The position numbers and the translations under genes are program-made. From a virus (taxonomy: Duplodnaviria; Caudoviricetes): a stretch of 25,342 bases of DNA. The stretch covers positions 1 to 25,342 of IMG/VR virus record IMGVR_UViG_3300010366_000062; one strand, written 5' to 3'. Shown in pieces: positions 2 to 25,203 of this stretch; positions within the stretch are counted from its first letter, which is position 1, and the number at the start of each line of letters is the position of its first letter. The notes below the pieces were generated by a model, which saw only the letters and a list, made by a program, of their open reading frames with translations, searched no databases and was not told the origin of the DNA.

Positions 2-3000
2 GACCTGCGCGGCGGCAGCGAATGGATGACACCCGACCAGATGCAAGCGCGCATGGGCCAACTCCAGGGTGGATTGGCCGTCGATCACCCGCAGGTGCCG
101 GGCGACAGTCCACTCAGCGTCGGGGCGATGGCCGCCAACCCGCTCATGCCGTCGAACCTGGTCTCGCGCGGCATGCAGATCCTGGGGCAGGTGGTGCAGC
201 CCGAGACACGTCAGGCCCTCGGACGCGCGCTCCAGCAGGCGCCGGCGCCCACCGACCGCGACGTGTCGTTGATCACCGGCCTGCCTGAGCTGCCCGGACT
301 CGCGGGTGTCGCGCGCTTCGGCACCCAGGCCCTCGGCGGCCTGCTCGCGCAGCCGAGCGCGCTCGAGGCCGTCGGCACCATCGACCGCGTCAATCGCAAG
401 ATGCTGGACGACCCGAACTCGATCACCGACGCCGACCGTGCCGACCTGCAGCAGGCGCAGATGATCGTGGGTGGTTTGAGTGGCGCGCCCGAGAGTGGCA
501 CCACGCGCATGTACCACGGCACCGGTGCCGACTTCCCCAGTGTGTCGCCTGAGGCCGTCAGTGGCGAAGGCAACCTGTTCGGGCCGGGTTACTACATGAC
601 GACCTCGCCCGACGTCGCCGGTGGGCGCGTGAGTCGTGGTCAGATCGGTATCAATCCGGAGACCGGGCGCACCAGCGAATACGACCCGACCACCGGCAAG
701 TTCACGACGTACATGACCGGCGCAGGCGAGTTGCAAGCACCGGGCTACGCCCAGGCGCGTACTAGGGTCGATGCGAACGAACTCGCCGACCTGCTGCAGA
801 GCGTGCATGAGGAGGTGTCGGGTGACGCCGGGTATCACGGGTACTTCCAACAGTCGACGGCGAGTGACATTCGCCAGTTAGCTAATGGCGCGCAACAACT
901 GGCCGATACGGGCTACACGCGAGTCGCTGGTACACAGATGTCTGGCGACAGTGCGATTCAGTACATCCAGAACCGGCTCGAGGCCGTCCTGAGTCGCGAC
1001 GTCCCGAACCCCGAGACGTACCTGAAGACGCTACGGCCAGACATTTTCAGTCGCGGCGGCAACGTGCGCGCGCTCGACGTGCCGAATGATCTGAACCTAC
1101 TGAACGTCGACAATCCAGCCCCGGCAGATGTCGAGCGTATCCGCAGTAGCGTGGCTCCCGACGTCGCCAAGCGTTTCGACGACCAGCTACGCGTGCAGGG
1201 CACGAACGTCTGGGACGCGCTCATGCGGGCAAATCCTGGCCCAGACCTGGGTGGATGGGGCCGCGGCCAGGTCGAGCAATGGACGAACCGGACCCTGGCG
1301 GACGCGGGCTATGACGGCATCACCTACGCCGGTGGCCAGCGCATCCCGATGCGCGACTCTGCAGGGAATCCCATTGAGCACCAGGCCACGGTCATCTTCC
1401 CCGAGAACGTCGGCAAGATCCGCAACGCCGTGAGTGGCACGATGGGCGGCCAGGCGAACGCGCTCTACGCCGCGGGCCTGGGCGGGGCCGCGGCCGGGCT
1501 GGCCGGTGCCGGCGCGGTCCTGGGAGGTGGCCTGTCAGACGCGCGGCAAAAAGCCCAGGCCGTCGCCGACAGTCTGCAGGGTTTTACGGCGCCATTGACC
1601 GCCGACGCGCGCGTGCCGCGCGAGCTCACCGATAACCCGCTTATGCCGTCCAACATCCTGGGTGGCGGCCTGCGCGCGGCCGGTCAGGCGCTCGCGGCCT
1701 CGCCGCTCGGTCAGGCCTACGGCTCGGAGTTGCGCCAGCAACTGCTGCCCAACATCCTCGAGCCGGGCCACCCGGTCAACGTCATCAGCGACCTGACCAC
1801 CAAGTACGCCGACCCGAATGCGGGTCCGATGACACCCGAGGACCGCCAGCGTTGGGACAACGCGCAGCTCGCCATCGCCGGCATGGCCGAACCGAGCGGG
1901 CTTGGGGGGCAGAAGTTGTCAGTGGGCGAACTCGCGGAGCAGTTGCGGCAGTATCCCGACGAGATTCAGGCTGGACTACGCGACTTTGTCCAGCAGCAGT
2001 CCCAAGCTGGCGTCGCCGGCAAGGACATCAATGACACGTTGCGCCAATGGGTCACCGATCATCCACTGCGCCCCGAAACACCGGGCGAAACGACACCATC
2101 TCCACCCTCGCCAGAGGCACCCGCGCCACCGACCTGGCCCAAGGGCGTGACCCAGGACATGGTGGATGCCATGCACCAGCGCATCGACCGCGCCCTCGAC
2201 ATCGCCGCGCCGTCCAACTATATCGCCCACGACCGGCTCGACCAGTTGCTGAACGCCGGGGCCAACCCCGGTGAGATCGAGCGCTTCTTGTCTGGCGTCA
2301 CCGGTCAGAACGTTGGCAAACTCGAGATGCTGCGTGCGCTGCGAACCGGCGCAATGGCCGGCGGCCTCTCGACCGAGGCCAAAGTCGCGGCGAGTCCGTT
2401 CATCCAGACGGCGCTGCGTGCGCCCGCCGGGGCCGTCAATCTGATCCTGCAGGGTCGCGCGGGCGACATCCCGGCCGGACTGGCGGGCGGCATGGGCGGT
2501 CTCGTCGAGGGCGCGCGCGACGCGCTCCAGACCATGCGCTACGGCACCAACTATCGCGCGCTGGGCGGCGGGCCCGCCGGGGGCTATGGCTTCAGCCCAG
2601 GGCTGGATGTGCTGGGCTCGAATCCACTGACGCGCACGCTCGGCACCGGGCTGATTGGTCTGGTGCGCACCCACGGGGCGATCAGCGACATCAGCGCCGG
2701 CATCGGTCGCGGGGCCAACCTGGCGCTCGGCGCCTCGCCCGCGCAGGCGGCCGAAGCCGGCCAGCAGTGGGCACTGCGATCTGGCCAGTACGGCACGATC
2801 GGCTCCGCGGTCAACGATGCCATGAGTGCCTTGCGCGGCAAGAACCCCGGTCTGGACGTCGCCAGCCAGATCCTGCTGCCGTTCTATCGCGTCGGCTACA
2901 ACGTCTTCACCCAGGGCGTCGAACGCTCGCCGCTCGGACTGGGCGGGCGGGTGATCGACGCTGTGCAGGGGCGTCCGCTGGACCGCGCCAAGTTAGTCAA

Positions 3001-3616
3001 CAACCTGTTCGGCGTCGGTCTGGCCGGGCTGGCGTTTACCCAGGCGGCGGCCGGCAACATCACTGGCGAGCAGCCCGAGGGCGGTGCGCCGAAGCAAAGC
3101 GTTCGCATCCCGGAGCAGGCGAATCTAGGACCGTTTGAGGGCATGGCGAAACGTGACGCCCAGGGCAATCTGTGGCTGCCACTGCGCGCCCTCGGGGCGG
3201 CGAGTGAGCCATTGGCTCAGGCCGCAGCACTGTATGAGTCGGCGCGCGACAATGAGGGCAACCTTCCGGGCCTGGCCAGTCAATTCGCCTCCGAGTACGT
3301 CAAGCACGTCGCCGACGAGACGTGGCTTTCGTCGCTGCAGGACGCGATGAATCTGGTCGGTGCGGTGGGTGGCGTCTCGAGCGCGAACGCCCAGGCGCGC
3401 GGCCAGGCCCAACGTGAGCTCGCCTACCAGGCTGGGCAGTATGGCAAGTCCTTCATCCCCCAGGAAAAGTTGGGCGAACAGATCGCGGGCGCGCTCGGCT
3501 TTACCGCACCCTCGACGTCGGGCGGCACGGCAACCGCGACGCGCCCGCGGACGAGCTCGGGTGCGACCAGCCGCTCAGTCGGCAGCGCGACTGCGGGCGC
3601 GCACCGGGCACGCTAG
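2..3616 (+). CDS. Large polyvalent internal virion/ejection protein with ADP-ribosyltransferase-like (ART-PolyVal-like) domain; probably 5'-truncated by the window edge
   Basis: Frame is open from nt 2 (DLRGGSEWM...), at least 1196 aa. Motifs YHGT (509-523), FGPGYYMT, GNV, AGYDGI and VIFPENVGKI follow the order seen in ART domains of polyvalent proteins. The Gly/Ala-rich C-terminal half has LPFYRVGYN..ERSPLG, like large phage internal proteins. Confidence 0.7.
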   Translation, partial: DLRGGSEWMTPDQMQARMGQLQGGLAVDHPQVPGDSPLSVGAMAANPLMPSNLVSRGMQILGQVVQPETRQALGRALQQAPAPTDRDVSLITGLPELPGLAGVARFGTQALGGLLAQPSALEAVGTIDRVNRKMLDDPNSITDADRADLQQAQMIVGGLSGAPESGTTRMYHGTGADFPSVSPEAVSGEGNLFGPGYYMTTSPDVAGGRVSRGQIGINPETGRTSEYDPTTGKFTTYMTGAGELQAPGYAQARTRVDANELADLLQSVHEEVSGDAGYHGYFQQSTASDIRQLANGAQQLADTGYTRVAGTQMSGDSAIQYIQNRLEAVLSRDVPNPETYLKTLRPDIFSRGGNVRALDVPNDLNLLNVDNPAPADVERIRSSVAPDVAKRFDDQLRVQGTNVWDALMRANPGPDLGGWGRGQVEQWTNRTLADAGYDGITYAGGQRIPMRDSAGNPIEHQATVIFPENVGKIRNAVSGTMGGQANALYAAGLGGAAAGLAGAGAVLGGGLSDARQKAQAVADSLQGFTAPLTADARVPRELTDNPLMPSNILGGGLRAAGQALAASPLGQAYGSELRQQLLPNILEPGHPVNVISDLTTKYADPNAGPMTPEDRQRWDNAQLAIAGMAEPSGLGGQKLSVGELAEQLRQYPDEIQAGLRDFVQQQSQAGVAGKDINDTLRQWVTDHPLRPETPGETTPSPPSPEAPAPPTWPKGVTQDMVDAMHQRIDRALDIAAPSNYIAHDRLDQLLNAGANPGEIERFLSGVTGQNVGKLEMLRALRTGAMAGGLSTEAKVAASPFIQTALRAPAGAVNLILQGRAGDIPAGLAGGMGGLVEGARDALQTMRYGTNYRALGGGPAGGYGFSPGLDVLGSNPLTRTLGTGLIGLVRTHGAISDISAGIGRGANLALGASPAQAAEAGQQWALRSGQYGTIGSAVNDAMSALRGKNPGLDVASQILLPFYRVGYNVFTQGVERSPLGLGGRVIDAVQGRPLDRAKLVNNLFGVGLAGLAFTQAAAGNITGEQPEGGAPKQSVRIPEQANLGPFEGMAKRDAQGNLWLPLRALGAASEPLAQAAALYESARDNEGNLPGLASQFASEYVKHVADETWLSSLQDAMNLVGAVGGVSSANAQARGQAQRELAYQAGQYGKSFIPQEKLGEQIAGALGFTAPSTSGGTATATRPRTSSGATSRSVGSATAGAHRAR

Positions 3617-4199: not shown

Positions 4200-6170
4200 A
4201 TGCCAAACATTCCTGGAACGAGCATCCCCTGGCCGTTCGGGTGGTTCTCCGACCCGGCATCCGGTCAACCCGAGATCGACTCGTCCCAGGCGCAATCGGT
4301 CGTCAATCAACTCGCGGCCGATCACGGTGGTGTCGTCGGCCAGCCGCAGGCCAACATCACCGATGCCAAGGGCAAGCCGACCGACATCAGCCGGTACTCG
4401 TTTGGCGACGGCTCGTCATTGCAGATCAGCCCGAGCGGCGTCATCGATGACTGGACACCCAAAGGCACCGGGTCCAGGACGGGCTGGACCGACTTCCAGC
4501 AGATTCGGAACGCCGACCAGTCGATTACCTACTACGGCAAGGACCCGGCCGACGGCAAACTGAAACCCGTTCCGGATCTGCCCAACAGCGCCGCGCCCGA
4601 GTCGGTCAAAACCACGCCGACACCCAGCGCGCAGCTCGACAAACTCGACGCGAAGGGCAACGTCATCGCCGCCGATGACACCACCACCAAGCCGGTCAGC
4701 CTGCGCGATCCGAAGACGGGCACCGTCATCGATATCCCGAAAGATCCCTCGGGCTCACTGACGACCATCAACAAGACGCCGTACCTGGTCAAACCCGACG
4801 GCACGGCGACGGTGGTCACCGGTCCGGACGGCAAGCCGATCTCGGTCAACGACAAGAGCACCGTGAATGTGCCCGGCAAGGGCCTGGTCGAGTATGACCC
4901 GTCCAAATCAGGCGACGACGCGTACCACGTCGTGCCCGGCACCGAGCCGTCCACCAACCGGTTGGCCAAGGACCTGCAGCCGGTGGTGCGCAACGGCAAG
5001 ACGTACATCGCCGTTGACAGTGCCGGGGGCATCGTCTGGCAGGAGGCGAAGGACGACCAGGGCAACGCGCTGCCGACCGAGACCACCTACACCGTCGCGC
5101 AGAACGACCCGCGTTCGCCGAATGTCCTGCTGATCGACTCGCAGGGCAACTCGAAGCTCGTCTCGAAGGGCCCCGACTGGAAGCCGCCGCCGTTGCCGGC
5201 CGCCGGTCAGGCGCTCACCCCGGACACCACATCGCCATTCGTGGTGACCATCGGCGACAACGGCCAGCCGGTCTTCACCCACAACCAGAACCAACTGAGC
5301 ATCTCGGACGCCCAGAAGCAGCTCATCCAGCAACTCGGCATGAAGGTGGCCGACGGGTCGATGTCCGAGGACGCGGCGCAGAAGCTGATCACCTCGGCCA
5401 CCCAGTCGATGACCGCCCAGGCGGCGATGATCAATGCCCAGGCCAACCAGCAGCAGCAGGTTGCCCAGACCGGCGGGGCCGTGCTGCAGGGCATCCAGCA
5501 GGGCGCGCAGACCGGCGCCGGCATCCTGCAGAACCGCGTCTCCAACGCCCAGCAGATGCTCGGCTCGGTGCTCGGCCTGGCCGGCCAGCGCTCACCCAGC
5601 GGCAATCTGGGCGGCGGCATGCTGTCGGCACCAGCCGGTCTCGGCGAGGCGCTCGTCGGCGGCATCAGCGGCTGGGCGACCGAGCTCGGCGGCGGGCCCG
5701 ACGTGTATCAGTCGGCGGCCAACCTGGTGCAGCGCGCCGATCCGGGCAGCAAGCTCGGCGGTGACGCGGCGAATGCCTACGGCGTGCTCGGCCAGATGCT
5801 GCAGAAGTACCGCGACATGACCGGCCAGCCGCATCCGGCCGAGACCATCGCTGCCCAGCAGCAACAAGGTGCCGGCTTCAACGCGCCGACGACGGTCACC
5901 CCTCAGCAGCAAGCCAACCAGGCCGCCGCGGCACAGCAGGTCCAGCAGGCGACCGCTCAGGCGAACATGCCCTTCGGTGCCATTGGCTCCAATCCGATGC
6001 TAGCCGCGCAGCAGGCCTACAACCGCCAGCAAGCATCTCAGCAGCTCGCCGCGGCGACGGCCCAGGCCAGTACGCCCTTCGGTGCGGTCGCCCCGAATCC
6101 CTGGGCGAACGCGGCCATGTTCGTCGCGCCGACCACGGTCGCGCCGCCGACCGCCACGGTGACCGCCTGA
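4200..6170 (+). CDS. Putative internal virion/ejection protein, 656 aa
   Basis: Long ORF with good codon bias; beta-hairpin-like PDG/DPKTG N-terminal half and Q/A/G-rich C-terminal half; position next to head genes. Confidence 0.6.
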   Translation: MPNIPGTSIPWPFGWFSDPASGQPEIDSSQAQSVVNQLAADHGGVVGQPQANITDAKGKPTDISRYSFGDGSSLQISPSGVIDDWTPKGTGSRTGWTDFQQIRNADQSITYYGKDPADGKLKPVPDLPNSAAPESVKTTPTPSAQLDKLDAKGNVIAADDTTTKPVSLRDPKTGTVIDIPKDPSGSLTTINKTPYLVKPDGTATVVTGPDGKPISVNDKSTVNVPGKGLVEYDPSKSGDDAYHVVPGTEPSTNRLAKDLQPVVRNGKTYIAVDSAGGIVWQEAKDDQGNALPTETTYTVAQNDPRSPNVLLIDSQGNSKLVSKGPDWKPPPLPAAGQALTPDTTSPFVVTIGDNGQPVFTHNQNQLSISDAQKQLIQQLGMKVADGSMSEDAAQKLITSATQSMTAQAAMINAQANQQQQVAQTGGAVLQGIQQGAQTGAGILQNRVSNAQQMLGSVLGLAGQRSPSGNLGGGMLSAPAGLGEALVGGISGWATELGGGPDVYQSAANLVQRADPGSKLGGDAANAYGVLGQMLQKYRDMTGQPHPAETIAAQQQQGAGFNAPTTVTPQQQANQAAAAQQVQQATAQANMPFGAIGSNPMLAAQQAYNRQQASQQLAAATAQASTPFGAVAPNPWANAAMFVAPTTVAPPTATVTA

Positions 6171-6171
6171 C

Positions 6172-7206
6172 ATGGCCACCTTTACGCTTCCCAATACTCA
6201 GACAGGCGGCGCGCAGCAGATCCAGGCCGGCTCGCTGCAGGAGGCGCAGCAGCAGGCCCAGGCGGCCGGTACCTGGTCGCCCGCGGCCGGCACGTACGGG
6301 TCCAATTCCATCGGTGCCTACACCCCCTCGAGCGGGGGCGGCAGCACACCCTCGGCGCCCACGGGCACGGTCGCCGCGCCACAGTCGGCGCAGCTCGCCT
6401 CGGGCATCAACTCGCTGCTCGGCGCCATCGCCTCAGGCAACAAGCAGGCCTTCGACGAGGCCGTACGCCAGTTCAACCAGACCTTCGGCCTCGACCAGCA
6501 GAAGTTTGCCGAGTCTGTGCGTCAGTACAACGAGGGCCTGGCTGTCACCCAGGCCGGCCTAACTGGCACGTACCAGGGCCAGACCACCCAGCAGGCGCTC
6601 GCGCAGGCGGCCAGCATCCAGGCGCAGCGGGCCAAGACCGCTCAGGACTGGGCCAACATCTACGGCTACACGCCGCAGCTCGACGTCAACGGCAACCCCG
6701 TCATGGTGAATGCCGCCGCAGGTGGTCCCGCGACCACACTGGCCGCGCAGCAGCAGGCCTACAAGCAGCAGCTCGATGCGATCACGGCCGCCGCGGGGAT
6801 GCAAGCGAATCCGTTCCGCCAGCAGCAGGTCATGGGCCAACTCGGGCGCGTGCTGACCGGCCAGGGCGTGGCCGGTTTTTCTGCGCCCAACACGGTGACC
6901 GGTGTCGGCACGGTCGGTGGCAATACCCAGGGCGGCCTGGGCTACATGCAGCAGATGATCGACGACATCCGCGGCGGCACCAACTCGGCCAACTCGCAGG
7001 GCGTGCAGGGCGTGCTGGACGCCATCCCTACCCCGAACAAGATCAATTCCGCCGACTTCCTGCGCTCGGCACCGTCTACCCAGAACATGATCCTGCAGGG
7101 CATGCAGGAAAAGTACGGCCTCGACCCCAACGACGCGTTGAACCAGATCAAGAACACCTTGCCATCGTTCCAGGCACCGTCTACATTCGGGACAATCAAG
7201 GGATAA
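6172..7206 (+). CDS. Putative DNA ejection/pilot-like protein, 344 aa
   Basis: Q/A/G-rich, with repeated F.E.VRQ(F/Y)N (FDEAVRQFN, FAESVRQYN); starts 1 nt after the previous stop. Confidence 0.55.
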   Translation: MATFTLPNTQTGGAQQIQAGSLQEAQQQAQAAGTWSPAAGTYGSNSIGAYTPSSGGGSTPSAPTGTVAAPQSAQLASGINSLLGAIASGNKQAFDEAVRQFNQTFGLDQQKFAESVRQYNEGLAVTQAGLTGTYQGQTTQQALAQAASIQAQRAKTAQDWANIYGYTPQLDVNGNPVMVNAAAGGPATTLAAQQQAYKQQLDAITAAAGMQANPFRQQQVMGQLGRVLTGQGVAGFSAPNTVTGVGTVGGNTQGGLGYMQQMIDDIRGGTNSANSQGVQGVLDAIPTPNKINSADFLRSAPSTQNMILQGMQEKYGLDPNDALNQIKNTLPSFQAPSTFGTIKG

Positions 7207-7210
7207 ACCG

Positions 7211-7366
7211 ATGCCACTGTTGGGCGGGAAAGCGGCCAAGACAAAAGCGGGCATCTCGAAGAACATCAAGACCGAGATGGCCGCCGGCCGGCCCCAGGCG
7301 CAAGCCGTGGCGATCGCCATGAGCAAAGCCGGAAAATCGCGGGCCAAGGGGAAGCCGTCGAAATGA
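7211..7366 (+). CDS. Small basic phage protein, 51 aa (MPLLGGKAAKTKAGISKNIKTEMAAGRPQAQAVAIAMSKAGKSRAKGKPSK); not in the ORF track
   Basis: Translated by hand. Resembles the common phage head-region family with IS.NI..E...G+PQ.QAVAIA.S.AG. ATGA overlap with the next gene. Confidence 0.8.
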   Translation: MPLLGGKAAKTKAGISKNIKTEMAAGRPQAQAVAIAMSKAGKSRAKGKPSK

Positions 7367-8292
7367 CGATGGACCTGCGGCGCTCCACCCATCCGGACCT
7401 CCTGGACGAGCTCGAGCCATTTCTCCCCCCGCCCGAGCCGAGCCCGTCCGTCTCGAACGGCGCCCCCCCGCGTTCCCGTTCGAGGCGCAAGGTGGCGGAT
7501 ACTGTCCCGGACGCGTCCCCTCCCGGAGACACCGAGACGCCCGCTGCCACGGAGGGCGGCTCGGACGACGGCCCTCCTGCGTCCGAGCCCGCCGCTCCAG
7601 AAGCAGATGTGCCCGAATGGCTCGGCCAACTCCGCGCCGCGACCGACCCGGACGAAATCATCGGGCTGGTGACCAAAAACGTCGATCGCGACCTCTTGAT
7701 GAAAAACGAAATCCTGTCCGCCGTCCTCGGCAACATGAGCAACAAGCGCGCTCAGGACCTGTTGCGTCAACAAGACCAGCAGCGTCAGGAGCGCGACCGC
7801 CAGGCTGCTTATGAGCGCGGCGACCTGTACGCCCTGGGTCAGCTCACGGCGGCCGAGCTGCAGCAGCAGCGCGCGGCGCTCGAGGCGCAGACCCAGGCCA
7901 CGCTGAATCCGTACATGCAGGACGTGACGGAGTTTCAGCGCGCCCTGCCCGAAGACGTCCAGAAACGCGTCCAGGGCAAACAATACGACAGCTTCGGCGC
8001 CTATCTGCAGGCCGTCCACGAGGCACGCCTGCAGTACGACGTCGAGCAGGAAGTCAAAAAGCGCGAGCCCGCCTTGAAAAAGGCCGAGCTGTCGCAGAGC
8101 GTGGGTAGCGAGATGACCCCCGAGTTGGATGGCGGACCTGCACAGCAGTATCGCGAGATCACCGATGCTCAGGTCGCCAGCATGACGCTCGAGGAGTACG
8201 ACCGCTACTTCGACGACAAGGGCCGACCCAAACCGGGCGTGCGCGTCCGATTGGAGCGCGGCATCGACGTGCGTCGCGAACAGCGGCGGTGA
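7363..8292 (+). CDS. Putative capsid scaffolding protein, 309 aa
   Basis: Acidic/Pro-rich disordered N-terminus, helical coiled-coil middle, C-terminal ASMTLEEYDRY motif; directly upstream of the MCP. Confidence 0.65.
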   Translation: MTMDLRRSTHPDLLDELEPFLPPPEPSPSVSNGAPPRSRSRRKVADTVPDASPPGDTETPAATEGGSDDGPPASEPAAPEADVPEWLGQLRAATDPDEIIGLVTKNVDRDLLMKNEILSAVLGNMSNKRAQDLLRQQDQQRQERDRQAAYERGDLYALGQLTAAELQQQRAALEAQTQATLNPYMQDVTEFQRALPEDVQKRVQGKQYDSFGAYLQAVHEARLQYDVEQEVKKREPALKKAELSQSVGSEMTPELDGGPAQQYREITDAQVASMTLEEYDRYFDDKGRPKPGVRVRLERGIDVRREQRR

Positions 8293-8296
8293 TCTC

Positions 8297-8327
8297 CTCA
8301 CCCGACTAGGGTGAGACGCCGAAAGGA
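8297..8327 (+). promoter_or_regulatory. Stem-loop and RBS of the major capsid gene
   Basis: CTCACCC-gacta-GGGTGAG (8297-8315), then GAAAGGA (8321-8327) before GTG at 8337. Confidence 0.6.
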
Positions 8328-8336
8328 ATACAACCA

Positions 8337-8396
8337 GTGGCCACTGGTGCAACGGAGTTTGTCGACAAGACCATTGCCGACGGGATCTTCAGCCCT
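8337..8396 (+). CDS. Major capsid protein exon 1 (MATGATEFVDKTIADGIFSP)
   Basis: RBS plus GTG, 20 codons. The unspliced frame stops at 8406-8408. Joins in frame to exon 2 to give FSP-DIWSKQVL, matching the F.P(E/D).WS MCP N-terminal motif. Confidence 0.85.
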
Positions 8397-9051
8397 GAAA
8401 CGTTCTGAATTGGGGCTATAAAACCGACCTCAAATGCTGGGATACCCTAAAGTCTTCACACCTACTAAGGGAAAAGAGTGGAGAATACGTGGGCAATCAG
8501 CAGGGCAATTTCGGAGAGACTGATCTCGCATGGTTAGCAGGATTCATCGACGGTGAAGGGTCATTCGGATTTCAACGGCTTGTCGCGTCGCGAACGAATC
8601 GGCCGCACAAGCGCGCTTACTTCACCCCGCGAATCACTGTCGGCAACACGGACCGTCCAACGCTCACCTATGTGCTTGACCTTCTCGAGGCGTACCACCT
8701 CCCGCATCTGGTGTGGGACCGGCAGCGCCGCGGAATCAATCTCAATGGGCATGCGAAGGCAGACTTCTGGCAGGTTCGTGCGGAGGGTTTGAAGCGGTGT
8801 GCTCGATGGCTCCCGTTACTCTTGCCGTATCTGCGGACCAAGCGAGATCAAGCGAAGGTGATGTACGAGTTCTGCGAGTTCAGGCTCGCGATGCCAGGTC
8901 ACGACAAGCCGTACACGGCCCGCGAACTGGAAATACTCGACATGTTCCGCAACCGTCGCTTCGAAGCCCTCACAGACTACACGGTCGGCGGGGCTATTCA
9001 GGCCTCGATGGTATAGTCGGCCCCCCTTCGAAAGCTGGGGGAGCTCCTGCG
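8397..9051 (+). ncRNA. Group I self-splicing intron, 655 nt
   Basis: P1 AGCCCU(8391-96)/GGGGCU(8412-17) with U.G at the 5' splice site. P3 CCGACC(8424-29)/GGUCGG(8983-88). P AAAUGCUGGGA(8432-42), Q AAUCAGCAGG(8495-8504). P6 AGGGC/GCCCU. R UCACAGACUACACG(8970-83). P8 CGGGGC/GCCUCG. S AUGGUAUAGUC(9008-18). P9 CCCCC..GAAA..GGGGG. Terminal G at 9051. Confidence 0.93.
8489..9016 (+). CDS. Intron-encoded single-motif LAGLIDADG homing endonuclease, 175 aa
   Basis: DLAWLAGFIDGEGSF motif, LLPYLRTKRDQA C-terminal motif, GGAG RBS at 8480-83; codon usage differs from flanking genes. Confidence 0.92.
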   Translation: MGNQQGNFGETDLAWLAGFIDGEGSFGFQRLVASRTNRPHKRAYFTPRITVGNTDRPTLTYVLDLLEAYHLPHLVWDRQRRGINLNGHAKADFWQVRAEGLKRCARWLPLLLPYLRTKRDQAKVMYEFCEFRLAMPGHDKPYTARELEILDMFRNRRFEALTDYTVGGAIQASMV

Positions 9052-9843
9052 GATATCTGGAGCAAACAGGTTCTGCGCGCGACCGAGGCGAATCTGGTCT
9101 TCGCCAAATGTGTCAATCGCGGCTTCGAAGACGACGCCGCGGTCGGCAAGTCGGTCAAGGTCGCCAGCATCGGCAACGTCGCCGCGCGCGCGAAGGCCGA
9201 AAACACGGCCATCGTGTACGAGACGGTCGCCGAGACCGCCACGACCATCACGCTAAACATCTGGTCGTACGCCGCGGTCGGCATCGAAGACATCGTCAAA
9301 GTGCAGTCGATCGTCGACGTCCAGAACGAGTACCAGATGAAGATGGGCTACGCCATCGCCCGCGACATCGACTCGAAACTGGCCGCCGACGTGGCCGGCT
9401 TCACCCAGACCGTCGGCACGCTCGGCACCGCGCTGGCTGACGTGGACGTCATTCGCTCCAACCAGTATCTGGACGATGCCGACGCGCCCGCCGACGATCG
9501 CTTCTTCATCATGTCGCCGGCCGAGAAAGCCAGCAAGATCGGGCTGGATCGCTGGTCGAACGCGCTGTACATCGGCAACCCCAAGCCGGTCGTGACCGGC
9601 AGCCTGGGCGACATGTACGGCATGAACCTGTTCGTGACCACCAACCTGGTCAAGCCCGCAGGCGGCCAGGCCAACAACTTCGCTTTCCAGCGCGAAGCGC
9701 TCGCGCTGATCGTGCAGCGCTCGCCCAAATTGCACCTGTTCTACGACATCGACTTCTTCACCTGGAAGCTGGCCTCAGAGGTGATCTACGGCCACCAGAT
9801 GATGCGTCCCACCTTCGGCGTCTGGGCGAAAGGCGTCGGCTAA
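9052..9843 (+). CDS. Major capsid protein exon 2 (spliced product 283 aa, HK97-fold, P22-coat/N4-gp56-like)
   Basis: DIWSKQVL...GKSVKVASIG...MGYAIARDIDSKL...LDDADAPADDRFFIMSP...GDMYGMNLFVTTNL...AFQREALAL...IYG pattern typical of phage MCPs. Confidence 0.88.
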   Translation, partial: DIWSKQVLRATEANLVFAKCVNRGFEDDAAVGKSVKVASIGNVAARAKAENTAIVYETVAETATTITLNIWSYAAVGIEDIVKVQSIVDVQNEYQMKMGYAIARDIDSKLAADVAGFTQTVGTLGTALADVDVIRSNQYLDDADAPADDRFFIMSPAEKASKIGLDRWSNALYIGNPKPVVTGSLGDMYGMNLFVTTNLVKPAGGQANNFAFQREALALIVQRSPKLHLFYDIDFFTWKLASEVIYGHQMMRPTFGVWAKGVG

Positions 9844-19149: not shown

Positions 19150-19326
19150 TTATGAGGCCCAAGGGCTTCGAGAGCGATCAAGCGCCTTTGAGGCGATCTC
19201 GTCAGCCCAGCACATGACCTGATGCGAGCAGCGGTGTTTCTGTCGATAGTCCCGCAAATTGATCCGTAGCCGCTCGTTAGTCTGGGTCAACTCGGGCACA
19301 CATTGGCAGTGCTGATGCTCGCTCAA
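19150..19326 (-). CDS. Hypothetical protein, about 58 aa
   Basis: TTG start overlapping the stop of the HNH gene (TTGA); HCQC and CSH motifs. Confidence 0.45.
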   Translation of the reverse strand: MSEHQHCQCVPELTQTNERLRINLRDYRQKHRCSHQVMCWADEIASKALDRSRSPWAS

Positions 19327-19787
19327 TGTTTGCCCATCTTCGCGTGGCACTGTCTGCACAGCCACTCCACCTCCAAGGGTTTCGAGTAGTCAGGATGGTG
19401 GCCTTCAATGGTCACGCCAGTGATGCCACACGTCGAACACTCGTATGATGGCATGATCCGCCCTGAGCGCACGGCACGATTCAGAACGTTATGTGCCCGC
19501 GCCCGCTCAGGATGCGTCTCTCGCCAGTCGCGAATGACTCTCCGCCGATAGCCGGGATTGCGCTCATCGTAGTTATCGCGGGCCGCACGTACCCGGTCAG
19601 GATTGCTGGCACGCCAGGAGTCGTCCTGAGCTTTGCGGCGTGCCGGATCAGCAGTCTTGTACGCCTGAGTCGCTTTCAGGTGGCACGTCTTGCAGTGGCT
19701 ATTCAGCCCGTCAGTAGCGCGCCGGTCTGAGTAGAACTCAGTGGTCGGCTGGGATTCGTGACAGCGACTGCACGTCTTCAATGCCAT
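19323..19787 (-). CDS. Zinc-finger HNH-like endonuclease, 154 aa
   Basis: AAGGAG RBS; KTCSRC...EFY...DGLNSHCKTC N-terminal Zn finger; CSTCG...GHHPDYSKPLEVEWLCRQCH C-terminal motif. Confidence 0.8.
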   Translation of the reverse strand: MALKTCSRCHESQPTTEFYSDRRATDGLNSHCKTCHLKATQAYKTADPARRKAQDDSWRASNPDRVRAARDNYDERNPGYRRRVIRDWRETHPERARAHNVLNRAVRSGRIMPSYECSTCGITGVTIEGHHPDYSKPLEVEWLCRQCHAKMGKH

Positions 19788-22278: not shown

Positions 22279-22307
22279 ACTATACTTGATATGCGACATG
22301 CATGCAA
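22279..22307 (-). promoter_or_regulatory. Sigma70-type leftward promoter
   Basis: Minus strand TTGCAT-17 nt-TATAGT, 9 nt upstream of ATG 22269. Confidence 0.65.
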
Positions 22308-22382
22308 CATATCTGCTACACTGTCGGCATGCTGATTCAAGATTGTGACGCCACTCTGGCAGTACACTCGCCTATCGTGACA

Positions 22383-22577
22383 ATGGTGCCGCCCCTGGTC
22401 CATCTGCGCGACCTGCGCCTGCGCCGCGCGCTGACGCAGGTGGATCTGGCCACCCTCTCAGGTGTCTCGCGCGCGACCATCATTCGCCTGGAGGCCGGCG
22501 AGCGCAACGTCCAGCCGCCCACCTTGCGCAAACTCGCCAGGGCACTCCGCGTCAAGGTTGCGGAGTTGATGGCGTGA
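22383..22577 (+). CDS. XRE-family HTH regulator, 64 aa
   Basis: LRDLRLRRALTQVDLATLSGVSRATIIRLEAG...TLRKLARAL. Confidence 0.9.
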   Translation: MVPPLVHLRDLRLRRALTQVDLATLSGVSRATIIRLEAGERNVQPPTLRKLARALRVKVAELMA

Positions 22578-22784: not shown

Positions 22785-22883
22785 ATGAGTATTGACTGGG
22801 ACAGCGTGATCATCGGCTTCGGGCTGGGCGTGTTCTGTGGGCCGTGGCTTCACAAAGCCCTGCGCTGGTGGTTGTTCCGATGA
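22785..22883 (+). CDS. 32-aa membrane peptide (MSIDWDSVIIGFGLGVFCGPWLHKALRWWLFR); not in the ORF track
   Basis: Fills the gap exactly and is ATGA-coupled to the integrase start. Confidence 0.55.
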   Translation: MSIDWDSVIIGFGLGVFCGPWLHKALRWWLFR

Positions 22884-24007
22884 GCCGCCGCGGCAATGGC
22901 GAGGGCAGCATCTATTCGCGCGTGCGGCGCCACACGCGCAAGGACGGCATGCTCGTCGAAAAGACCGTCTGGTGCGCCGCGGTGTCGCTCGAGTACGGCG
23001 AGCGCAAGGTCATCTACGGCAGTACGCGCGAGGAGGTCGCATCTGAGCTCGTCCGCCTGCTCGGCGCGCGCCAGTCCGGGCTGCCGGTGCCACGTGGACG
23101 ACTCAAGACCGGCGACTACCTCGAACAATGGCTGGAAGAGACGGTCAAACCGTCACGCAAGCCGCTGACCTACGTCCGTTACGAGAACATCACGCGTCGC
23201 CACCTGATCCCGACGCTGGGCAAAATCCCACTGGCCAAACTCGGGCCTGGCGATGTCCAGCGCATGCAGGCGCGCATTATCAGCAAGGGTCTTTCGCATG
23301 CCAGTGTGCTGGGTGCGCGCAACGTACTCAGCGCCGCACTCAGCCAGGCCGAGCGCTGGCAACTCATCGTGCGCAACCCGGTACCACTGGTTGCCGCGCC
23401 GCGCGGCGAGCCGTCCGAACCGCGCTGTTTGAGCCGCGCCGAAGGCGACGCGTTTCTGGCAGCCGCCCGCGGCGACGAGTACGAGTACCTCTTCGCGACC
23501 ATGCTGGCGACCGGGCTGCGGCCGGGCGAGGCGCGTGGGCTGGCCTGGACCGCGGTGCACCTGGATCGCGGGGTGCTCGAGGTCCGCCAGCAGTCGATCG
23601 ACATGAACCGCGAGCTGGCCGCCCCGAAATCGCGCCATGGACGTCGCTGGGTGCCGCTCATGCCTCTGGCGGCCTGGGCCCTCGAGCAGCAGCGCGCGCG
23701 GCCTGTGCGTGCGCTGAGTGGCCTGTGCTTCGCGGCCGAGGATGGCTTGCCACCGGCGGCACGCACCATCCGCGACCACTTCGACGCGATCTGTCTGAGG
23801 GCCGGCATTGTGGGCGCCACCCCGCACACGCTGCGGCATTCGGCCGGCACCTACCTGCTGGGCGCGGGCGTGCCGGATCGGGTGGTGCAGGACATCCTGG
23901 GCCACGGCTCGGCGGTGATGACACGGCACTACCAGCATGTCACGCCGGACATGCTGACCGAGGCCGGCGCGCGCCTGGCGGCCTACTGGACGGCCACTGC
24001 GCACTGA
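22880..24007 (+). CDS. int: Tyrosine integrase, 375 aa (start ATG 22880)
   Basis: MSRRGNGEGSIY N-terminus; catalytic TGLRPGE (R), PKS (K), HTLRH, LGH and RHYQH (Y). Confidence 0.95.
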   Translation: MSRRGNGEGSIYSRVRRHTRKDGMLVEKTVWCAAVSLEYGERKVIYGSTREEVASELVRLLGARQSGLPVPRGRLKTGDYLEQWLEETVKPSRKPLTYVRYENITRRHLIPTLGKIPLAKLGPGDVQRMQARIISKGLSHASVLGARNVLSAALSQAERWQLIVRNPVPLVAAPRGEPSEPRCLSRAEGDAFLAAARGDEYEYLFATMLATGLRPGEARGLAWTAVHLDRGVLEVRQQSIDMNRELAAPKSRHGRRWVPLMPLAAWALEQQRARPVRALSGLCFAAEDGLPPAARTIRDHFDAICLRAGIVGATPHTLRHSAGTYLLGAGVPDRVVQDILGHGSAVMTRHYQHVTPDMLTEAGARLAAYWTATAH

Positions 24008-24010
24008 GGC

Positions 24011-24197
24011 GTTGCTGTCCGGGTTGCTGCCAGAAGGTCGAAAATGAGTGATTTTGAACTCAGAACGAGGCCGTTCGCATTTCTGTGCCAGTTCTGTTTT
24101 TTGGCCTTGGAAACCCTCATTTTGAGTTCAAAATTGGCTCAGCAAGGGTCCCGAAATGTCCGTGTGTAGCAGCGCGTTGCTACACACTTTGCTACAC
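24011..24197. other. Putative attP region with arm- and core-type repeats
   Basis: AT-rich gap after int. GTTGCTG x2 (24011, 24023); 20-bp imperfect inverted repeat 24051-70/24115-34; GTGTGTAGCA/TGCTACACAC inverted repeat 24162-87; TTGCTACAC x2 (24177, 24189). Confidence 0.65.
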
Positions 24198-24536
24198 CGG
24201 ACGGCTCGGATAGATGTGGATGGTCTGCTGCAGCACCCACAGGTTGACCACCATCGGCGGTTCGAACGCGCCACTGCCGAAGACGGGCACGGGGTTGAGC
24301 AGCTCGCCAGGCAGGACGTGGAAGTGCGCCGCGACCTGGATCAACTGATTCAGCGACGGCTCGTGCGTGTGCTCTTCCCAGCGGGCAATGGTGCCGATGG
24401 GCAGCCCGAGCGCGTCGTTAAGTTGCACCTGGGTCAGGCTGTCGCGCTGGCGCAGACGCTTCAGGTTGGCGGCGAACGTCAGGTTGCGCGAGCCAGCCGA
24501 GCGGCGGCCACGTCGGCGAGTGCTGTCATTGGTCAT
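24192..24536 (-). CDS. XRE-family HTH repressor (CI-like), 114 aa
   Basis: FAANLKRLRQRDSLTQVQL..ALGL...TIARWE...EPSLNQLIQVAAHF; divergent from the RHH/xis genes. Confidence 0.85.
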   Translation of the reverse strand: MTNDSTRRRGRRSAGSRNLTFAANLKRLRQRDSLTQVQLNDALGLPIGTIARWEEHTHEPSLNQLIQVAAHFHVLPGELLNPVPVFGSGAFEPPMVVNLWVLQQTIHIYPSRPV

Positions 24537-24954: not shown

Positions 24955-25203
24955 ATGGACTCTCTCAACAGGAACACCAGAGAAACTGCCGAGCTGCTGG
25001 GCGTCAGCGAAGCGACGGTCAAGCGGCTGATCCGCCGCGGCGAGTTGTTGTCGATCAACATCGGGGGTCGCCGGCTGGTGCCCCAGACCGCGATTGACGA
25101 GTACCAGGCCAGCCTGGTCAACGACGCACGCGAAGAGCACGATGCGCACCTCGAGCAGCAGCAGCGCATCAACCAGTTCACCCGCAAGCGGCGGCCGGCA
25201 TGA
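24955..25203 (+). CDS. xis: Excisionase-like HTH (MerR-type/HTH_17) protein, 82 aa
   Basis: TRETAELLGVSEATVKRLIRRGELLSINIGGRRLVPQTAIDEY. Confidence 0.85.
   Translation: MDSLNRNTRETAELLGVSEATVKRLIRRGELLSINIGGRRLVPQTAIDEYQASLVNDAREEHDAHLEQQQRINQFTRKRRPA

Follow-up and report, generated by a model that had tools for sequence, protein, structure and literature searches.

A probable mobile group I intron with a LAGLIDADG endonuclease gene in the major capsid gene of a temperate tailed phage

The DNA analysed here (the window) spans an entire IMG/VR virus record, 25,342 nt long and ~65% complete, and close relatives of this phage are found on contigs of up to ~40 kb. Profile matches revealed a tyrosine integrase (22844–24007, + strand), genes with repressor-like HTH domains (three HTH genes at 22302–22577, 24192–24536 on the − strand and 24955–25203), an amidase, tail-fibre genes and a free-standing endonuclease gene (19326–19787, − strand). 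Judged by the combination of integrase, repressor-like HTH, amidase and tail-fibre genes, the source is a temperate tailed phage. Only distant relatives were obtained when isolated phages were searched with the capsid and endonuclease sequences. The genome collections contained one close capsid match only, an intron-free gene in a Gemmatimonadales MAG (contig of 39.7 kb), and the intron core pattern described below had no occurrence in the genome-contig collection. Upstream of a probable scaffold gene (7363–8292) lie three large ORFs without family matches (26–3616, 4200–6170 and 6172–7206), which likely encode injected virion proteins; the weak ART-PolyVal match of the first (E = 0.015) is below the cut-off. 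Between 7900 and 10000, a promoter scan found no promoter-like site, including none of the sigma-70 type, and a terminator scan found terminator-like sites at chance level only.

The major capsid gene is present in two parts. Exon 1 (8337–8396, + strand) comprises 20 codons and begins with a GTG start at 8337, 9 nt behind the ribosome binding site (RBS) AAGGA (8323–8327, + strand; anti-SD duplex of −5.6 kcal/mol). Similar purine-rich motifs also precede the capsid homologues. This exon matches the N-terminus of the intact homologues, with 19/20 residues being identical in one of them, P0039. Exon 2 (9052–9843, + strand) adds 263 codons plus a stop in frame with exon 1, matches the PHROG 267 major head protein (E = 7e-32) as well as PF19821 and PF25209, and shares 95–98% identity with the intact homologues. 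Together, the two exons account for the 283–284 aa of the intact homologues. A total of 271 capsid homologues were found, and the N-termini were counted on the 120 matches listed. Among these, 114 are 283–290 aa long with an exon-1-like N-terminus, and D/E-I/V-W-S is located exactly at residue 21 in 108; three begin a few residues before the junction, two are shorter pieces, and one, P0002 (345 aa), carries an 82-aa extension resembling read-through of an intron tail. The comparison with intronless homologues, proposed as a check in the original prediction, came out in favor of a split gene.

Similarity to profile families and solved capsids places the protein among the HK97-fold major capsids (PHROG 267, T7/P22-like). 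The insertion point lies within F-x-P-x-x-W, the N-terminal capsid motif with the highest conservation, which is also present in the solved capsids 9jwb and 8e16. An AlphaFold model of an intact capsid homologue reached a pLDDT of 39 and was set aside. Reading of the unspliced RNA ends at a TGA (8406–8408) after 23 aa, and the profile scan of the window ORFs revealed no second capsid gene. Within exon 2, an in-frame start is first encountered at residue 75, without an RBS, so splicing would be required for the capsid protein to be made in full length. In the window, the splice boundary can slide by one base, as both the intron and exon 2 begin with G; it is fixed by the U·G rule described below and by relatives in which the intron begins with A. 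The original prediction of an unannotated 20-codon exon with an RBS, an in-frame junction, a stop four codons into the intron and a capsid dependent on splicing agrees in each of these points with the present analysis, the exon and RBS coordinates being exact. The alternative frame 8713–9843 was rejected as a real capsid gene and is regarded as a read-through artefact; it closes in 2/8 relatives. Between the stop of the upstream gene and the capsid RBS, a hairpin (8297–8315) was observed whose shape, not its sequence, is kept in many relatives. The folding z of this region is −2.9, and translational control or mRNA stabilization is a possible function.

The 655-nt insert between the exons (8397–9051, + strand), which ends with G9051, is predicted from its helices and their covariation to be a self-splicing group I intron. 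Introns at the same site measure 649–674 nt in 8 loci. The hand-drawn structure, based on the window sequence, has 13 helices, and the group I traits found are the terminal G, P10/P9.0, the P3–P7 pseudoknot, P8, P9, the P4–P5–P6 domain and the P/Q/R/S elements (all on the + strand). The last 7 nt of exon 1 form the 5′ strand of P1 and end with the splice-site U8396. The internal guide sequence (8409–8418) provides both the P10 strand (8409–8411, pairing with 9052–9054) and the P1 strand (8412–8418), in which G8412 pairs with U8396; this U·G is kept in 8/8 distinct rows of the same-site alignment. At the other insertion sites, introns with different guide sequences obey the same U·G rule. In P10, an A-U pair is changed to G-C in 2/8 rows, where exon codon 21 is GAC and the guide has G instead of A. 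The in-frame TGA lies in the P1 loop and stops translation of the unspliced RNA, and 9/9 rows show such a stop at the second or fourth intron codon.

The 5′ strand of P3 (8424–8429) pairs with 8983–8988 across ~550 nt; it is 100% paired in the alignment, and double-sided changes are seen in 2/6 pairs. P4 (8435–8440/8497–8502), P5 (8445–8447/8491–8493) and P5b (8461–8463/8468–8470) derive from the helix drawing, while P5a (8453–8459/8478–8484) shows double-sided changes in 4/7 pairs; P4 to P5b also appear in the MFE fold. P6 (5′ strand 8503–8506) and P6a (5′ strand 8510–8515) contain one double-sided change each. The 3′ core (8960–9019) is marked by helices, covariation and nearly frozen synonymous sites. 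Here, the 3′ strands of P6a and P6 (8960–8969) are followed by J6/7, by P7 (8973–8979/9014–9019) with the G-binding pair G8975–C9018 and a bulged A8974, by the 3′ strand of P3 and by P8 (8989–8995/9001–9007) with two double-sided changes. P9.0, P9 with a GAAA loop (9022–9041) and the terminal G9051 complete the intron (9020–9051). All helices named in the original prediction, which had claimed a complete set of group I pairings, are present, and P5, P5a, P5b, P6a, P9.0 and P10 are added here. The intron contains no P2 and no P7.1/P7.2, and its P5 is extended by P5a/P5b. These features are associated with the group I subgroup IB (IB4-like), to which the intron may belong.

The drawn helices were scored on a MAFFT alignment of the 9 same-site introns (8 distinct). 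As many as 98.7% of the 528 cells are paired, compared with 31–53% in the controls with slid partners, although this fraction is inflated because the eight distinct rows are related and the structure was derived from the window. Double-sided changes occur in 11/66 pairs, with 0/500 shuffles as high, and fall in P3, P5a, P6, P6a, P8 and P10, whereby the long-range changes in P3, P6 and P10 are the informative part of the covariation. The count of extra pair types was not above that of the shuffles (409/500), and the folding energy of the two core halves was no better than that of shuffled sequences (z of −0.11 and −0.49). The R..S core pattern has a single occurrence in the window, compared with 0/100 shuffles, and the 3′ core model yields one real match in the window. 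In 19 wider 3′ cores, 14/20 pairs change on both sides; these cores were chosen by the R/S pattern, so the conservation of P7 there is a product of the selection. An Rfam scan of the window, the kind of search suggested in the original prediction, did not recover the intron at the gathering score or at E ≤ 10, and no aptamer or other Rfam element was matched in the window. In 6/15 related loci RF00028 was detected below the gathering score (E of 1.6e-5 to 0.92), in one case spanning the same-site intron of L022. Poor coverage by RF00028 is noted in PMC6125680.

The intron contains a 175-aa ORF (8489–9016, + strand) that occupies ~80% of its length and was overlooked in the original prediction. 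Profile matches, a structural model and selection all point to a single-motif LAGLIDADG homing endonuclease. The motif LAGFIDGEG is found at residues 16–24, of which D21, E23 and G24 are invariant in 23/23 rows. The endonuclease profile matches I-MsoI (E = 1e-15) as well as I-CreI and I-CvuI. The window protein alone is below the Pfam cut-off (LAGLIDADG_1, E = 0.06), and 18/23 family members match PF00961 at E ≤ 0.1. The model, with a pLDDT of 82.6, contains the α-β-β-α-β-β-α elements, and a Foldseek search with it returned I-MsoI, I-CvuI and I-CreI as top matches (E ~1e-7, prob 1.0) at an identity of 18–24%. No frame breaks are present in 9/9 rows, and dN/dS amounts to 0.04–0.18 in the loop part of the ORF in 8/8 comparisons. 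Combined, these data predict an endonuclease of the I-CreI type with a homing function. The PHROG of this protein carries the label HNH, an identity ruled out by the LAGLIDADG motif and the fold. For the pseudo-palindromic target at the intron-free junction that a homodimer of this type would cut, a dyad scan gave at best 14/22 at +8 and 12/22 at +3, which is within chance for 29 positions.

The endonuclease ORF starts with a non-AUG codon inside P5/P4, has its body in the P6 loop and then runs through P7, P3′ and P8 to its TAG stop (9014–9016) inside the 3′ strand of P7, overlapping the core by ~27 nt at one end and ~57 nt at the other. Its candidate RBS, GGAG (8480–8483), sits in the P5a stem, and across 16 relatives the strength of such candidates lies between −0.9 and −9.5 kcal/mol. 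Along the dual-coding stretch (8960–9016), where ORF and core coincide, hardly any synonymous changes are left, and the final residues of the protein encoded there are disordered in the model. The position of the stop varies, being located in the P8 loop in 4/9 rows and in P7 in the window, which we read as a snapshot of the ORF creeping into the core.

The distribution of the intron was compared with that of the capsid gene using the best 80 of the 238 capsid loci, near-duplicates included and one locus starting beyond the site. Of these, 68 are intron-free and 12 have an intron core, 3 at the site of the window and 9 after codon 5; all 12 introns retain the endonuclease ORF. The intron of the window is 90% identical to those of L081–L083, whose exon 2 is only 74–76% identical. 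Conversely, exon 2 shares 82% identity with L022 and 91% (over 375 nt) with L166, while the introns of these two loci share 72–76% (76% for L166). The nearest capsid alleles of the window (89%) are intron-free. In a 73-row capsid tree, a single clade of the 7 intron-bearing alleles was rejected with a p-AU of 0.0007. Intron losses alone could explain the rejected clade, but not the inversion of the identities. Optional presence and a history unlike that of the host gene, both expected of mobile introns, are seen, and by these sequence comparisons the intron is one that moved sideways between capsid alleles. With dS of ~0.6 to the closest copies, the transfer was not recent. The hexamer AGCCCT ahead of the splice site occurs in 9/9 same-site rows versus 0/66 distinct other alleles, a uniformity expected from P1 pairing together with short co-conversion, and 61/66 intron-free alleles have TCN or AAC, not AGY, at codon 19.

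Searches with the endonuclease added further same-site copies as well as the third site described below. The same site is also occupied in capsids that are only 22–37% identical (L095, L167, L250 and L251), where each intron has a terminal G and a P1 of its own that matches. A second site in the same capsid family lies after codon 5, e.g., in L045 (2175–2955), where the first exon is 15 nt long, and is also used in L041, L043, L049, L054–L056, L059, L060, L097 and L101. The stop codon is the first intron triplet there, the introns have their own guide sequence and P10, and the endonuclease (206 aa) is ~32% identical to that of the window; several of the nine codon-5 introns among the best 80 capsid loci are near-identical. 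No locus with both codon-5 and codon-20 introns was seen among the loci examined. At a third site, near codon 88 (L105, 1925–2687), the intron is of another type and has its endonuclease in the P5 region. Two to three intron cores or endonuclease ORFs lie close together in L102, L107, L131, L146, L148, L191 and L202, with the split in L102 being 10 nt downstream of the site of the window.

To view the endonuclease more widely, 120 distinct relatives were collected from the best 80 of 170 viral and the best 80 of 146 metagenome matches. At least 33 of the 120 have an intron core downstream. The host genes of these 33 comprise 12 capsids of the family of the window, 12 other capsids by PHROG (one weak), 3 more capsids by similarity to one of these and 6 genes without identification, and none is another identified gene. 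Thus, 27/33 intron–endonuclease units reside in capsid genes, which belong to at least five PHROG groups, a count that may be biased because the core model was trained on capsid-intron cores and other subtypes could escape it. The other 87 relatives are mostly free-standing in appearance with mixed neighbours (polymerase, reductase, methylase, terminase and some capsid genes), and the two endonuclease matches inspected in isolated phages are free-standing genes without an intron core. In L120, L125, L142, L206, L213 and L238, related endonuclease genes directly follow capsid-like genes with no core detected; these are possibly free-standing homing partners or missed introns.

Taken together, the capsid gene is very probably interrupted after codon 20 by a mobile self-splicing homing intron with its LAGLIDADG endonuclease. 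The exons sum to an intact protein, and the pairing pattern of group I is complete in the insert and shows compensatory changes. Following the mechanism of the family, guanosine bound in P7 would attack U8396 held in P1, whereupon exon 1 would attack after G9051, aligned by P10 and P9.0, and ribosomes on the unspliced RNA would halt at 8406 and thereby stay out of the core. The endonuclease would be translated from the capsid transcript, probably at low expression or from the excised intron. With its start in P5 and its final codons passing through P7, the ORF prevents any one RNA from being translated there and catalytically folded at the same time. A homodimer would then cut near the exon junction of intron-free capsid genes in related phages, and repair would copy the intron plus a few flanking exon bases. 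The conflicting histories of intron and capsid, together with the insertion in a conserved motif, are observed and are in line with such homing.

Besides homing, the endonuclease might also serve as a weapon that cuts the capsid gene of intron-free relatives, whether they co-infect or are resident, an addition that is compatible with homing but that we consider rather unlikely. The strong purifying selection on the protein, the essential target gene and the many intron-free relatives would fit this role, and gp210 of PhiPA3 acting on PhiKZ provides a precedent (PMC11620839). However, homing alone accounts for the selection, and with TCN or AAC at codon 19 many of the intron-free alleles may escape cutting. 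It is improbable that the protein is chiefly a maturase needed for folding and splicing of the intron. PMC3984707 reports maturase-like activity for only one bacterial intron protein of the LAGLIDADG type, from Thermotoga, the ORF is kept in all 12 introns mentioned above, and the core halves fold weakly by energy alone, but the core is complete and canonical, sideways movement requires DNA cutting, and the catalytic acidic residue is kept in 23/23 rows.

The original prediction had further inferred that dependence on self-splicing could act as a checkpoint on assembly. In this reading, splicing would be tuned so that the capsid awaits a cue, for instance the GTP level, Mg or the translation state. 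Capsid synthesis would indeed hinge on splicing, and a T4 study cited in PMC3073962 reports splicing that follows the growth state, so that an incidental effect of this kind is possible. This part of the prediction nevertheless did not hold up and is very improbable, as 68 of the best 80 capsid loci do without the intron, the introns are scattered over the tree, three different insertion sites are used within one gene family, the intron moves sideways with an intact endonuclease gene, no aptamer or other Rfam element is found in the window, and an early stop is generic to group I introns (PMC3073962). Finally, the absence of splicing, with exon 2 translated alone or from the open frame 8713–9843, or the gene being dead, can practically be dismissed: the exon-2 frame is open for 124 codons upstream in the window and for >110 codons in 6/8 relatives, and the database protein P0002 is annotated that way, but this frame closes after 11–12 codons in L080 and L093, the upstream extension matches no intact capsid, both exon 1 and the RBS in front of it are conserved, the junction is pinpointed by P1 and P10, and the scanned window ORFs hold no other capsid gene.

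The homing intron of the window provides an entry to a wider pattern of I-CreI-like enzymes in a seemingly capsid-confined lineage. We tentatively propose, as a possibility short of even odds, a capsid-specialist lineage in which a group I intron with a promoterless, core-overlapping LAGLIDADG gene rides the most abundant late transcript and thereby expresses its enzyme, targets the few conserved motifs across unrelated capsid families and doubles as a weapon against relatives lacking the intron. Among the open-access papers searched, single cases but no capsid-restricted lineage with a sense-strand, core-spanning LAGLIDADG gene were found. For annotation, gene callers yield a false 376-aa or a truncated capsid and miss exon 1, and Rfam overlooks the window intron. 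The availability of same-site alleles with and without the intron makes homing, co-conversion, the conflict between splicing and translation, and competition testable, and this set also offers new small meganucleases.

The window intron is a further case of phage capsid introns that are already known. Its closest counterpart is the capsid intron of the mycobacteriophage LittleE, for which efficient splicing was demonstrated by RT-PCR and N-terminal sequencing (PMC3706429). In both cases, a probable group I intron, with a U before it and a G at its end, splits the capsid gene of a temperate phage, and the I-CreI-like LAGLIDADG ORF is of similar size (177 aa in LittleE; PMC3706429). However, the LittleE intron is 819 bp long with its ORF on the opposite strand, while that of the window is 655 nt long with a sense-strand ORF over the core. 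The capsid families are also different, mobility is visible across many alleles in the case of the window, and a phage search with the window endonuclease gave no LittleE match. A group I intron in the capsid gene of the lactococcal phage Tuc2009 is cited in PMC3706429. Capsid genes of the Delta and Zeta groups of crAss-like phages were likewise reported to be interrupted by group I introns, with several per gene in some genomes (PMC7886860); those are large intron-rich gut phages, whereas the present phage is ~40 kb in size, bears an integrase and shows one intron over the 25 kb seen.

According to reviews (PMC3984707), phage introns mostly carry GIY-YIG, HNH, PD-(D/E)xK or EDxHD enzymes, and LAGLIDADG genes are a minority in the phage sets of PMC12880540 and PMC10448857. 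Like the archaeal intron IA3.1, the window intron has its ORF in P6 (IA3/IB4 introns, PMC6125680). It shares the single-motif LAGLIDADG fold with I-CreI, I-MsoI and I-CvuI, but the introns of these enzymes reside in rRNA genes, whereas that of the window resides in phage mRNA with its ORF over the core from P5 to P7. I-TevI of the T4 td intron has its own promoter, unlike the window endonuclease, for which no sigma-70-type promoter was found in the scanned region. Core overlap, a buried RBS, a non-AUG start and an early stop have been described in other bacterial and phage introns (PMC3073962, PMC3984707), and group I introns usually have an in-frame stop close behind their 5′ splice site (PMC3073962). 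The window intron likewise resembles T4 td/I-TevI in its P6 ORF reaching into the core, early in-frame stop, sequestered RBS and non-AUG start; td, however, encodes a GIY-YIG enzyme with a 20-nt overlap, whereas the window intron carries a LAGLIDADG gene that overlaps the core at both ends (PMC3073962).
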